A stretch of 64,000 bases of DNA from Dehalococcoidia bacterium (lineage in GTDB: Bacteria; Chloroflexota; Dehalococcoidia; SM23-28-2; RBG-16-64-32), in the NCBI GenBank assembly GCA_963665775.2, contig CAXXTF010000002.1, positions 1,088,001-1,152,000 on the forward strand. The letters are read 5' to 3'. The notes below the pieces were generated by a model, which saw nothing but the letters and a program-made list of their open reading frames with translations, was not told where the DNA came from and did no database searches. Position 1 is the first letter of the stretch. Every line of letters begins with the position of its first letter. Both the position numbers and the translations under genes were made by a program. Of the stretch, positions 2,675 through 6,087 are shown in pieces.

Positions 2675-3043
2675 GCGGACCCAGTAGGCCTGTAGGCCGA
2701 GTTCTGTATCCCGACACTGTCAGGACGGTGACCATCTATCTGGGACGACGGTTACCCGCCGCCTCCTGCAGCCAACCCGAGGGTTTGGGCCGGGCGTCCC
2801 TTAACACCCTCCTATTTGGCCTTGCTCCGCGCGGGGTTTGGCCGGCCTCCAACTCACGCTGAAGCCGGTGGGCTCTTACCCCACCATTTCACCCTTACCC
2901 CGATGAATCGAGGCGGTATGTTTCTGTGCCACTTTCCGTCGGGTCACCCCGCCTGGGCGTTACCCAGCGCGCTGCCCGGAGGAGCTCGGACCTTCCTCCC
3001 CCCGCCAGAGACGGGGAGCGGTCACCCGGCCTACTGGGCCCGC
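2675..3043 (-). ncRNA. rnpB: RNase P RNA (bacterial type A)
   Basis: Minus strand has GAGGAAGGTCCGAGCTCC near the 5' end and ACAGAACTCGGCCTAC near the 3' end; terminal P1 pairing; TGcTATACT extended -10 upstream. Confidence 0.96.
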
Positions 3044-3168
3044 AGCCAGTATAGCATCCCGCCACAACCTCCCCTGCGGCTCCACACGACTTACCTGTAA
3101 CGTCCGGAAGCGATACGCATCCCAAGCTTGTTGCAACCGAATCGACTATGTTAAGGAGACGAGAGCCC

Positions 3169-3387
3169 ATGGAATGCCCGATGTGCCGCGGCGGTGGAAG
3201 CTGCCTCGAGTGCGATGGGCTCGGCGCGGTCACCTGCCGGGAATGTGATGGGCTGGGCTGCGAGGTATGCCGGCGGAGCGGGGCGGAGCCATGCCTGCCC
3301 TGCAACAGCAGTGGCTCTTGCCGCCGCTGCCAGGGAGAGGGCCAGGTGGACACGGCTATACCACTTCCCTTCCGCTACGGCCACTGA
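3169..3387 (+). CDS. Small stand-alone DnaJ-type Cys-rich zinc-finger protein
   Basis: Six CxxCxxxG repeats (e.g. CPMCRGGG, CLECDGLG, CRRCQGEG); AAGGAG SD upstream. Confidence 0.7.
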   Translation: MECPMCRGGGSCLECDGLGAVTCRECDGLGCEVCRRSGAEPCLPCNSSGSCRRCQGEGQVDTAIPLPFRYGH

Positions 3388-3408: not shown

Positions 3409-3822
3409 CTAGTCCAGGCCGCGATCCAAGGCCAGATTGGCCAGCTCATCGGCCCGCCTGTTCTGCTCCCGCGGGATGGCACGCACCTGGAAGGCAGCGA
3501 ACTGTCGCCGGAGGTCCACGAGCCGCCCGAAAAGGGGCTTAAGTCGGGCGTTGCGCACCCGGTACCGGAACTCCAGCTGACGCACGACGAGCTCTGAGTC
3601 CATCCTCAGTTCGACGTTTTGCGCCCCCATGGCCACCGCCGCCTCCAGGGCAGCGATGGCGGCCTGATACTCGGCCTCATTGTTGGTGGCTCGGCCGATG
3701 CGGCGGGAGATAGCGTGAATCTCTTTCCCAGCCTCATCATAGATCGCTGCCCCAATAGAAGAAGGGCCGGGGTTGCCGCGGGAAGCACCGTCAGTGAATA
3801 TAAGCCACGTTGCGTCAGGCAA
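3409..3822 (-). CDS. rnhA: Ribonuclease HI family protein
   Basis: FTDGASRGNPG, TNNEAEY, DSELVV and REQNRRADELAN motifs. Confidence 0.93.
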   Translation of the reverse strand: MPDATWLIFTDGASRGNPGPSSIGAAIYDEAGKEIHAISRRIGRATNNEAEYQAAIAALEAAVAMGAQNVELRMDSELVVRQLEFRYRVRNARLKPLFGRLVDLRRQFAAFQVRAIPREQNRRADELANLALDRGLD

Positions 3823-3829
3823 CGGCGCC

Positions 3830-5230
3830 CTACGGATTCACCAGCGTCTCGACGCTATCATCACGCACGACGACTCGATCGAGCAGGACGCGCAGAAGCT
3901 CCTGCCGTTGCGGGAAGGGGAGCCGGCCCCAATCGTCTCTCAGACGAACCAGAACCCCTTGACGTTGGCGCCTCCTCTCCGCCTCCGTCACCTCCTGCTG
4001 AACCAGGCGCTGCGCCTCGGCGAGCTTCTCCTCCAGCTCCAGTTGTTGAGTGGCCAAGGCCAGACTGAGGGAGCGCAACCGCTCTCCATTCATGCGACCA
4101 GATGTCGTGGAGTCAAGATGGCGCTCCAACCGCTTGTCCAGGCCCCGCATCCTCTCTCGCAACCGCCGGCTGCGATCCTCCCTCTCCTCCGGAGTGCCAG
4201 CCCCATCGCCGGGTTGGGAATGCGCCGACTGCGATTCGCCACTGAGGAGGGCTTGACAAACGGCCTCCTCCAGCTCTTCCGCACGGTGGGTGTGATAGTC
4301 GCATACGCTGCGGTTGGCACGGGACTCGCACTGGTAGTAGCGGTACTTGGCAGCGCGAACGGTGCCATCGCGTCGCCGCCAGCTCTGCTTGCGAGTGACG
4401 CCGATCATCTTGCTGCCACAGTAGCCGCAGTGGGCCAGGCCCGAAAGCAAGAACGGTGACAGCTGGCGGGACCCCATCACGGGCTGCCGCTGGTCCAGCC
4501 TCTCCTGCACATCACGGAAGTCATCCTGGGAGATCAAAGGGGCATGGCTGGCCGGCACCCGTACTCCGAACCGGCTGTAGGTCCCAAGGTAAGCGCGGTT
4601 CCTGAGGATATCCCGCACCGTGACCATACTCCAGAGACCACCTCGGCGGGTGCGGAGACCGTCGTCGTTGAGCCGACGGGCTATGCGGCGAATACCCAGC
4701 CCATCCTTCAGATACAGGCGAAAGATGTATCGGACAATGGAGCCCTCTTCAGGCATCACCACCAGGCGCCGCTTGGCCCCGACCCGATATCCGTAAGGGG
4801 GACGGCCCAGCACCTCGCCCTTGATCGCCTTGCGCCGCATCGCCTCCCTCACCCGATCCCCCAGGCGCCCGTTGGACCGCTGACTCGTCCAGCGCTCCAA
4901 CAGCGGACTGGCGGCATCATCGCCGTTCTCAAGACTGATGACGGTAACGCCCAGGCTGGCCAGCTGATAGTAGCGTCGGGCGGATTCGGTGAGGGCGGCA
5001 CCCAGGGTGGCCAAGTCTGACACCACCACGAGCAGGAAGCCACGATTCCCCTGCTGCCTGACGAACTCCACCATCTGGCGGAAGCCGGGCAGATCGCCCC
5101 CGTCCCTGTTAGCATCGAGAAAGGCGGCGGCCGCCTCGTACCCGTTACCACGGCAGAACTCCAGGAACAGCCGGCTCTGCTCAGCCAGCGAGTCGCCTTG
5201 CCTTTCCCTGAAGTAGCCTATCGCCCGCAT
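3830..5230 (-). CDS. Large serine recombinase-family protein with degenerate catalytic domain
   Basis: Resolvase-like N-terminus, PPYGY, recombinase domain (ILRNRAYLG, HAPLIS), zinc ribbon (CGYCG...YYQC...C) and coiled coil; catalytic Ser absent. Confidence 0.85.
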   Translation of the reverse strand: MRAIGYFRERQGDSLAEQSRLFLEFCRGNGYEAAAAFLDANRDGGDLPGFRQMVEFVRQQGNRGFLLVVVSDLATLGAALTESARRYYQLASLGVTVISLENGDDAASPLLERWTSQRSNGRLGDRVREAMRRKAIKGEVLGRPPYGYRVGAKRRLVVMPEEGSIVRYIFRLYLKDGLGIRRIARRLNDDGLRTRRGGLWSMVTVRDILRNRAYLGTYSRFGVRVPASHAPLISQDDFRDVQERLDQRQPVMGSRQLSPFLLSGLAHCGYCGSKMIGVTRKQSWRRRDGTVRAAKYRYYQCESRANRSVCDYHTHRAEELEEAVCQALLSGESQSAHSQPGDGAGTPEEREDRSRRLRERMRGLDKRLERHLDSTTSGRMNGERLRSLSLALATQQLELEEKLAEAQRLVQQEVTEAERRRQRQGVLVRLRDDWGRLPFPQRQELLRVLLDRVVVRDDSVETLVNP

Positions 5231-5231
5231 G

Positions 5232-5933
5232 CTACCTTACAAGCAGTATCCGCTCGCAGCTGACGCACTGGACCACTCCCAGACCAGCCCTCGCCTTCTG
5301 CAATATGGACATAGGAAGCGTTATCCGGCACCCCCGGCACATCCCCCGCTCGACGATGGCCACCGCCTGACCACTTCGCCTCTTCCTCAGCAACTGATAC
5401 ATGCTGTGCGCAGCCCTCTCGATCCCCTCCGATCGCTTGGTCTGTCTCTCCCGGAGCCGCTCTAGCTCGGGCTCGATCCGGCCTTTTTCGATCTCCATCT
5501 CCTGCTGGCCAGCGCGCCAGCGAACCTCCAGCTGAGAGAAGGCTGAGTCCACCTCCTTCAGCTGCGCCGCCGCCTCCTCTATCTCCACCAGTACAGCCAG
5601 GAGCACATCCTCCTGCTTGGCGATCTGTCCCTGGAGCGATGTGAGATCGGCCTGCAAGTCCGCCAACTCCTTGGGGTTCCCTATGCTCCCGCCGTAGAGC
5701 TTCTTCTCGACCGCCGAGGCCTTGCCGCGGATCTCATCCACCCCATACTCCAGATCCTTTTGGCGTGAGCGAAGCTCCGCGACAGCCTGCCGCTTCCCTT
5801 CCACCTCCCGTCTGGCCTCTACGAGCTCCTCGCTCTCGCCCAGTTGCTCCTCGATCTCTGCCAACCGCGACATAGCCCCATCCAGAGCAAGATCGATCTC
5901 TTGCAGGGCATATAAATCAGTGGCTACCGTCAA
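5232..5933 (-). CDS. Coiled-coil plus C4 zinc-ribbon protein (DUF164/CT398-like)
   Basis: LYALQEID start, long coiled coil, CRGC...CVSCERIL C-terminus. Confidence 0.9.
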   Translation of the reverse strand: MTVATDLYALQEIDLALDGAMSRLAEIEEQLGESEELVEARREVEGKRQAVAELRSRQKDLEYGVDEIRGKASAVEKKLYGGSIGNPKELADLQADLTSLQGQIAKQEDVLLAVLVEIEEAAAQLKEVDSAFSQLEVRWRAGQQEMEIEKGRIEPELERLRERQTKRSEGIERAAHSMYQLLRKRRSGQAVAIVERGMCRGCRITLPMSILQKARAGLGVVQCVSCERILLVR

Positions 5934-6087
5934 AATAAGAGCACCGGTCTGGCTTTACGCCTGTCAGGGGATGGACAGTGTTTGCAGCGGGATTATAGAC
6001 TCAGAGCGAGAGTTTTTGCAAGATGGTCGGCCATAGCGAAATGCCCAGTCTGCCCTAACCACAACGCTAATTCTCAACATTACCGCC

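Follow-up and report, generated by a model that had tools for sequence, protein, structure and literature searches.

What has become of a gene that keeps the full domain order of a serine integrase, lacks the serine nucleophile, and sits within a housekeeping operon, and what might its product do there? The question is raised by an open reading frame (ORF) of 466 amino acids (aa) at positions 3830..5230, minus strand, of a 64,000-nucleotide (nt) stretch of DNA, hereafter the window, from a Dehalococcoidia bacterium (assembly GCA_963665775.2, contig CAXXTF010000002.1). Its product resembles the large serine recombinases (LSRs), also called serine integrases, and the gene lies between a gene of the CT398 family and one for RNase HI. 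The original prediction, made from the letters of the window, was that an integrase had been co-opted here as a cellular protein, and sequence comparison supports the co-option well: the distribution of the gene, its tree, its ratio of nonsynonymous to synonymous substitution (dN/dS) and the loss of the catalytic set among its relatives all point the same way. On balance, we favor the explanation that the gene is an exapted, non-catalytic LSR, inherited vertically and retained in single copy as a cellular gene whose product probably binds DNA and acts by the mechanism proposed below. A part in DNA binding, synapsis or regulation, also put forward originally, would follow from the retained domains, the nearly frozen recognition surfaces and the positive charge of the protein.

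Active-Site Motifs of the LSR-like Protein

Rereading the ORF gave the same motifs as those first reported, namely YFRER at residues 6-10, DANRDGGDLPG at residues 39-49 and ATLGA at residues 74-78. By comparison, four LSR paralogues encoded in the same genome carry canonical motifs (for example, YCRVST, DRPGM and IDRLSRN in L004), and alignment to these four places R10 at the nucleophile Ser and L47 at the "RPG" Arg, with A74, T75 and A78 falling on the D, R and R of DRLxR. The solved SPbeta integrase, aligned by profile, leads to matching assignments, its YLRRS lying opposite YFREs of the family and its RLSR opposite vLGd. The Ser nucleophile of the YxRxS motif is absent from the protein and, among R8, R68 and R71, which we take to be the active-site arginines in gamma-delta numbering, R8 alone is kept, R68 being replaced by T75 and R71 by A78. 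D39 is kept as well.

Two other residues were considered as nucleophiles. The Ser of the nearby GDSL sequence, S14, had been named at the outset as a candidate that could restore activity; it is ruled out by its alignment with the helix-capping Ser/Thr of active LSRs (TSLETQ) and not with their nucleophile, and its column holds Ser in only 32 of the 104 family representatives listed. The other was C26, a Cys that hardly varies in the family; opposite it, the active paralogue L004 has an Ala, a small buried residue.

The same genome (G000) holds seven further LSR-like matches (L002-L008), on contigs C1 and C2. Those checked, L003, L004, L005 and L006, carry canonical catalytic motifs, and L003 and L005 are near-identical while lying on different contigs. 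Active serine-integrase elements would thus coexist with the dead gene.

Loss of the Catalytic Set Across the Family

A search of clusters at 50% identity matched 177 clusters at E <=1e-30 as against 6128 at E <=1e-10, which sets the family apart from ordinary LSRs. Column counts were made on the 104 of 150 listed representatives that are at least 400 aa long, and single-column counts are approximate because the most divergent members cannot be aligned with certainty over their first 20 residues. Among these 104, R8 is canonical in 47, the nucleophile Ser in 15, the R68 equivalent in 8 and the R71 equivalent in 10. All four catalytic residues occur together in only four (P0257, P0265, P0268 and P0270), which stand at the bottom of the list (E ~1e-36 to 1e-38) and group with the active paralogues, outside the family clade. 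Among 103 orthologues taken from whole genomes, none has R8, S10, R68 and R71 together, and none combines even the Ser with the R68-equivalent Arg. Relatives with an intact gene, which the original prediction regarded as the mark of a decaying insertion, were therefore not found among them.

The nucleophile column holds Ser in 6 of the 93 orthologues outside the taxonomic family f9 and in 0/10 within it. In f9, DRxxR is kept in 10/10 and the N-terminus has been replaced by one without YxRxS; the C-terminal region of these loci (L043, L044 and L109-L116) is shortened too, and the f9 orthologues look like a further-derived form of the LSR-like family. L021 and L030, from families other than f9, read DRLG, with the final Arg lost. 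Within positions 1-120, only Y6, C26, F37, L76 and G77 are at least 90% conserved, and these look like core positions. From the sequences of the family as a whole, the catalytic columns have the appearance of piecemeal decay from an ancestral active site.

A separate observation concerns the R68-equivalent column, where a His, in an xHLA/G motif, is found in 45 of the 104 listed representatives and in 16 of the 93 orthologues outside f9 (for example, L047).

Distribution, Inheritance and Selection

Of the 201 Dehalococcoidia genomes sampled, 104 have the LSR-like gene, with one match in each (E <=1e-30), and the reading frame is open throughout, with no internal stop in any of the 104 matches. 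At the level of taxonomic families it is nearly always all or none: this holds for 29 of the 30 families itemized (for example, 10/10 in f9, 10/10 in f19, 9/9 in f26, 0/9 in f24 and 0/5 in f8), with f30 (6/7) the sole mixed family. Random loss among relatives, which had been held to count against co-option, is not what this pattern shows. In a sample of 301 genomes from across the phylum, eight matched (E <=1e-40), all of them the gene's own genome or others of its class, and no LSR-like gene of this kind was found in the other classes sampled. The nearest homologues are labeled Dehalococcoidia or Chloroflexi by their sources, which points to a genome of Chloroflexota and not of Actinobacteria.

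A tree was built from 30 family members and nine active LSRs by a quick search, with support from the Shimodaira-Hasegawa-like approximate likelihood ratio test (SH-aLRT) only. In this tree the family forms one clade (SH-aLRT 100), and the taxonomic families represented by more than one member are monophyletic in 6/6 cases. The gene tree needs 11 changes of taxonomic label, the minimum for 12 families, as against 26.8 in shuffles. Moreover, end branches within the family are short (median 0.26), those of most of the active LSRs in the same tree being 1.0-3.4 long. The expectation that orthologues lacking the Ser would prove to be vertically inherited is borne out by this congruence with taxonomy, and by dN/dS.

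Estimated by the Nei-Gojobori method on seven pairs, whole-gene dN/dS is 0.08-0.26, the ratios being rough in the four pairs with dS above 1 (up to 2.5 in one of them). By region, values are 0.04-0.12 for residues 121-330 and 0.09-0.41 for residues 331-466, and the N-terminal domain gives 0.08-0.39 in six of the seven pairs, with dS saturated in the remaining one. These ratios indicate that the gene is under purifying selection in all of its domains. Mean pairwise identity among 30 orthologues is highest in the alpha-E helix and linker (0.74) and the recombinase domain, or RD (0.72), followed by the zinc-ribbon domain, or ZD (0.61), the N-terminal core (0.42) and the coiled coil at residues 331-430 (0.30). 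Together, distribution, taxonomic range, tree and selection argue that the LSR-like gene is not a decaying insertion.

Domain Architecture and Predicted Fold

The recombinase domain, the Cys zinc ribbon and the coiled coil had been described as intact, and Pfam matches, conserved Cys residues and predicted helices agree. The Resolvase model (PF00239) matches residues 5-138 at 29 bits, barely above its cut-off of 23.3, while Recombinase (PF07508) matches residues 160-248 at 79.1 bits and Zn_ribbon_recom (PF13408) residues 261-328 at 53.1 bits. A profile of the family (A2) aligns to SPbeta SprA over positions 4-456 (E 6e-31), to A118 Int (E 9e-27) and to gamma-delta resolvase, 1gdt (E 7.7e-6), and for residues 331-466 the aligned parts of SPbeta SprA and phiC31 Int are their coiled-coil regions.

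With a 50-sequence alignment as input, AlphaFold2 gave a model whose mean predicted local distance difference test score is 87.7. The model comprises an alpha/beta domain of the resolvase type, a long helix (123-136), a recombinase domain made up of helices, a zinc ribbon rich in beta structure, and a coiled coil made of two long helices (347-376 and 382-413). The top Foldseek matches of the model are the SPbeta SprA, Bxb1, phiC31 and A118 integrases (E 1.8e-22 to 2.7e-15), and for the N-terminal domain a match to the catalytic domain of TP901-1 has a template modeling score of 0.73 by target length and a root-mean-square deviation of 3.4. Judged from the model, the protein is a genuine LSR fold with every structural domain of an LSR.

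Conservation is concentrated in the parts that follow the N-terminal domain. In the family alignment A1, the residues M131, R132, G138, E139, G142, R143, P144, P145, G147 and Y148 are invariant, as is the GRPPYGY linker, and of the zinc-ribbon Cys in the family alignment A2, C268 never varies, with C271, C301 and C310 showing conservation of at least 90%. Net charge is +6 over residues 121-150 and +10 over the RD (151-250), and amounts to +22 over the 210 residues of the alpha-E/linker, RD and ZD.

Operon and Genomic Neighborhood

Features of the operon and of the LSR-like protein, with their positions in the window
Feature	Positions	Strand	Basis
Sigma-70-like promoter of the operon: TTGCAA, 18 nt, TATAAT	5992..6021	-	Consensus scan, 10/12 matches
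CT398/HP0958/MSMEG_4306-family gene (COG1579, DUF164), 233 aa	5232..5933	-	Pfam, profile
LSR-like protein, residues 1-120: resolvase-fold N-terminal domain lacking the nucleophile Ser and the R68 and R71 equivalents	4871..5230	-	
LSR-like protein, residues 121-150: alpha-E helix and GRPPYGY linker	4781..4870	-	
LSR-like protein, residues 151-250: recombinase domain	4481..4780	-	
LSR-like protein, residues 251-330: zinc-ribbon domain, Cys 268, 271, 301, 310	4241..4480	-	
LSR-like protein, residues 331-466: coiled-coil motif and C-terminal strands returning to the zinc-ribbon domain	3833..4240	-	
RNase HI gene, 137 aa, TTG start	3409..3822	-	Pfam
rnpB (bacterial RNase P RNA, class A)	2677..3037	-	Rfam RF00010, 304 bits

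Both junctions of the LSR-like gene were read directly and have the spacing first reported: a single base separates the TAG stop of the CT398-like gene from the ATG of the LSR-like gene, and seven bases separate the latter's own TAG stop from the TTG start of RNase HI. Its GC content (0.63-0.65) resembles that of the flanks (0.58-0.70), in keeping with the host-like composition noted at the outset. A repeat search and the gene content of the surroundings likewise agree with the view that flanking repeats and cargo are missing: no att-like repeats and no invertible or excisable segment were found flanking the gene, and beside it lie housekeeping genes and no cargo genes. None of this looks like an att-flanked element that can move or be excised, the more so as the gene occupies the same position in most relatives, and the protein, lacking both the catalytic features and a mobile context, is classed here as an exapted derivative and not as a recombinase.

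Conservation of the neighborhood was examined at 103 loci from other genomes, with flanks of 1.5 kb in 29 and of ~2.6-3.1 kb in 74, some of them shortened by contig ends. Synteny among the orthologues that lack the Ser had been posed as a test of the original prediction, and a CT398/COG1579-like gene indeed lies directly upstream on the same strand in 83 loci (86 within 600 nt). From its stop to the start of the LSR-like gene, 25 of 29 loci have a gap of -1 to +11 nt. Of the 17 loci without a CT398-like match, ten are all those of f9, six are all those of f41, and one has only 340 nt of upstream sequence. The proposed tie to RNase HI holds in the window itself and is weaker than claimed across the class, the gene for this enzyme (rnhA) being directly downstream in only 36 loci as against the 83 for the CT398-like gene. 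A divergent YceD gene lies upstream in 50 of the 103 loci, a count limited by flank length. Downstream, rnpB is found on the same strand in 49 loci (within 150 nt of the stop in 16) and on the opposite strand in one. In four more, all from one subclade of f33, a signal recognition particle (SRP) RNA gene takes its place on the same strand (L025, 3180-3447; L026, 2659-2924; L028, 1172-1437; L030, 1150-1417), so the CT398-like/LSR-like pair adjoins a stable-RNA gene in either arrangement.

Relatives without the LSR-like gene suggest how this order arose. In five such genomes of the class, the CT398-like gene is present in 5/5, rnhA directly follows it in 3/5, and rnpB lies just downstream in 4/5, which points to an ancestral arrangement CT398-like-(rnhA)-rnpB into which the LSR-like gene was inserted. 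Neighborhoods of the CT398 family that include rnhA and RNase P RNA have been drawn for other phyla, according to a figure legend (PMC3372290).

The neighbors themselves are readily assigned. The CT398-like protein has a coiled-coil hairpin followed by a C4 zinc ribbon (CxxC...CxxC), as is characteristic of the family; it matches Pfam CT398_CC at 45.4 bits (cut-off 27) and Zn_ribbon_9 at 24.8 bits against 29.1 (at the cut-off in a second scan). Its profile (A3) matches the solved structures of CT398 (4ilo, E 3.5e-23), MSMEG_4306 (5y05) and HP0958 (3na7) over their full length, with E from 3.5e-23 to 1.5e-17, and C199, C202, C223 and C226 are invariant in the alignment. By these matches, the upstream protein is a true member of the CT398/COG1579 family. 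One such member, ML1638, has been predicted to bind the beta' subunit of RNA polymerase, and for the family it is predicted that the zinc ribbon anchors on beta' while the coiled coil reaches the sigma-binding region (bioRxiv 10.64898/2026.07.15.738315, available part). The RNase HI gene exceeds the cut-offs of two Pfam models, RVT_3 (75 bits) and RNase_H (53.5 bits), which suffices for assignment to the family, and matches NCBIfam RNase H models below theirs.

Two further observations belong to this neighborhood. Open frames of 659-716 aa had the appearance of CT398-LSR fusions and were rejected, the extension in L016 and L031 being another frame of GC-rich DNA that is not CT398-like. Between rnhA and rnpB, convergent to the operon, lies a small Cys-rich ORF of 72-79 aa (window 3148-3387, plus strand; 3169-3387 from the second ATG) with repeated CxxCxGxG-like motifs. 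Its only Pfam matches, to BSD2_CRD and a B-box-like zinc domain, are both below the cut-offs (E ~0.02), and a similar ORF occupies the same place in locus L009.

Expression and Candidate Regulatory Sites

One promoter-like site was found upstream of the CT398-like gene, and no terminator-like site was found in the gaps between the CT398-like, LSR-like and RNase HI genes. In many of 23 orthologous loci, judged by eye and uncounted, TTGCAA or TTGTCA followed by TATAATCC occupies the same intergenic position. Two metatranscriptome runs yielded perfect-match contigs that cover 4612-5899 in pieces, and one contig (4910-5267) bridges the junction of the CT398-like and LSR-like genes; such contigs are weak evidence, giving no level, strand or ends, and the parts of the stretch without cover carry no information. 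A comparison of upstream sequences indicates that rnpB has its own -10-like element, TATACT, ~10 nt upstream.

By-eye alignments of the promoter regions and of the regions upstream of rnpB revealed only promoter-like hexamers and, in close relatives, a short stretch after the -10 element. The latter lies at 5940-5990 of the window (minus strand) and at the same place in L009-L013, reads GCAAC, 3-4 nt, TGTCCAYCCC, and may be the point where the transcript begins or an element of its leader. An att-like site was found neither beside the LSR-like gene nor upstream of rnpB.

Proposed Mechanism and Alternatives

The mechanism that we propose begins with the fixation of an integrase gene between the CT398-family gene and rnhA/rnpB, after which the active site would have decayed while the remainder stayed under purifying selection. 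The protein would dimerize through its degenerate N-terminal domain and the alpha-E helix, and the basic, nearly frozen surfaces of the linker, RD and ZD would bind nucleic acid at a specific target, which is most likely DNA of pseudo-palindromic sequence. In mobile LSRs, the alpha-E/linker, RD and ZD surfaces are those that read att sites, and their near-invariance across the class suggests a fixed target here. The coiled coil would serve protein contacts or bridge two sites without cutting. The LSR-like and CT398-family proteins would be produced from one transcript, probably with translational coupling, and so tight a pairing suggests that they act jointly. In the preferred version, the LSR-like protein would be the sequence-specific DNA-targeting partner of an RNA-polymerase-associated factor, and hence a transcription or architecture factor. 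A more particular form of this idea, offered tentatively, is that a dead LSR dimer sits at a fixed att-like site, where its coiled coil either recruits the CT398-family protein to promoters, possibly including those of stable-RNA genes such as rnpB, or bridges two sites uncut. If true, no earlier transcription or architecture factor would be known to derive from an LSR.

Several results weigh against this mechanism. The RNA-library contigs may stem from contaminating DNA. No conserved palindrome was seen by eye in 23 orthologous promoter regions or in 55 regions upstream of rnpB. RNA-polymerase binding by the CT398 family is known only as a preprint's structure prediction. At E <=1e-40, a weak search for CT398-LSR fusions exceeding 816 aa gave none, fusions of ~700 aa not being specifically sought. 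Finally, f41 and f9 keep the LSR-like gene and yielded no CT398-like gene to searches with the A3 profile (five genomes) and PF02591 (four genomes), including the two f9 genomes searched, while the same queries did detect the CT398-like gene in control genomes. The partnership is therefore not obligatory.

Of the other explanations, the one to be taken most seriously, and even so a rather unlikely one, is that the protein acts on RNA or on RNA:DNA hybrids, for example by helping to make or express stable RNAs (RNase P RNA, SRP RNA) or by handling R-loops together with RNase HI. The recurrent placement of rnpB, of rnhA and, in the f33 subclade, of the SRP RNA gene downstream would suit such a role, as would the survival of the rnpB link in two of the six f41 loci, where neither a CT398-like gene nor rnhA was found in the locus, and basic surfaces could bind any nucleic acid. 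Against this, the RD and ZD folds are known, going by the titles of solved complexes, solely as binders of double-stranded DNA; rnpB carries a -10-like element of its own; and the order CT398-like-rnhA-rnpB exists without the LSR-like gene, so that adjacency may simply mark an ancestral landing site. We give somewhat less credence still to a decoy or guard against mobile elements, which would occupy an attB-like site, perhaps near rnpB, or poison active LSRs through mixed oligomers. The dimerization, DNA-binding and coiled-coil modules that competition with integrases would need are all kept, and the genome does contain several LSR paralogues, with canonical motifs in the four checked. Stable-RNA genes, moreover, are common integration targets. 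Recognition surfaces that are nearly invariant across the class, however, are easier to reconcile with a fixed cellular target than with an arms race, the LSR-like gene is on a first look the only LSR-like candidate in G064 and G067, and no adjoining att-like site was found.

Residual catalysis and a functionless relic are both poorly compatible with the catalytic columns, the tree and dN/dS. A recombinase still active through an unconventional nucleophile or active site could draw on the retention of R8 and D39 in this protein, on the minority of family members with Ser in the nucleophile column and on the DRxxR of f9; yet the Ser and the R68 equivalent never occur together among the orthologues, every catalytic column varies freely, the few positions conserved in the first 120 are apparently core ones, and no flanking repeats or invertible or excisable segment accompany the gene. 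It is accordingly regarded as very improbable. Slightly more improbable again is a functionless, decaying remnant of an integrated element, which the lost catalytic residues and the public annotation of the family as ordinary recombinases might suggest, and which is at odds with a frame open in all 104 genomes, low dN/dS, a gene tree congruent with taxonomy, conserved synteny and end branches much shorter than those of most active LSRs.

Relationship to Known Systems

Serine integrases such as SPbeta SprA/YokA, A118 or LI Int, Bxb1 and phiC31 share the domain order and fold of the LSR-like family over its full length. They possess the Ser nucleophile, the R68/R71 equivalents, att repeats and cargo genes, all of which are missing from the LSR-like gene and its surroundings; this gene, unlike theirs, is single-copy, syntenic, vertically inherited and, by its end branches, slow-evolving. 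XisF, which acts in developmental excision, is also a host-serving descendant of an integrase and gives the best NCBIfam match of the LSR-like protein, with the XisF-type model (NF041201) scoring 66.9 bits against a cut-off of 375, too low for an equivalog. XisF and SpoIVCA are domesticated LSRs that excise developmental elements, and both still recombine DNA and keep their catalytic residues.

Literature searched for serine recombinases that are inactive, dead or exapted yielded nothing on this bacterial family, and the sole precedent found was poxvirus F16. The serine recombinases mentioned in the available part of a review on the recruitment of mobile elements (PMC8987985) are active ones. 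F16 is predicted to be an inactive serine-recombinase homologue that was kept after apparent catalytic loss (PMC4304020, available part, citing Senkevich et al. 2011). Likened here by description only, F16 is a nucleolar protein of a eukaryotic virus, whereas the LSR-like family is bacterial, has LSR architecture and lies in a housekeeping operon. In the literature searched on DUF164/CT398, no link to a recombinase was found, and the word "recombinase" is absent from the main text of two papers on this family (PMC3372290 and PMC8469502).

Homologues of the LSR-like protein carry the public names "recombinase family protein," "site-specific DNA recombinase" and "Pin-like invertase," and counts of mobile elements or integrases in Dehalococcoidia genomes and metagenomes would consequently include a core gene that is unable to recombine. 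With this family, LSRs would join the few mobile-element enzymes exapted after catalytic loss, and the poorly understood CT398/COG1579 family would gain a conserved and testable genetic partner. Moreover, a natural LSR that binds and does not cut could reveal which portions of the fold are enough for recognizing a site and for synapsis.

Parallels for such an exaptation may be sought among proteins of other descent. WhiA derives from LAGLIDADG homing endonucleases. TldR, which comes from TnpB, has been described, in the available part of its source, as an RNA-guided transcription factor. The likeness of both to the LSR-like family, which turns on the putative target and regulatory effect proposed for the latter, is one of logic, with catalysis lost and target recognition kept in folds unrelated to that of an LSR.

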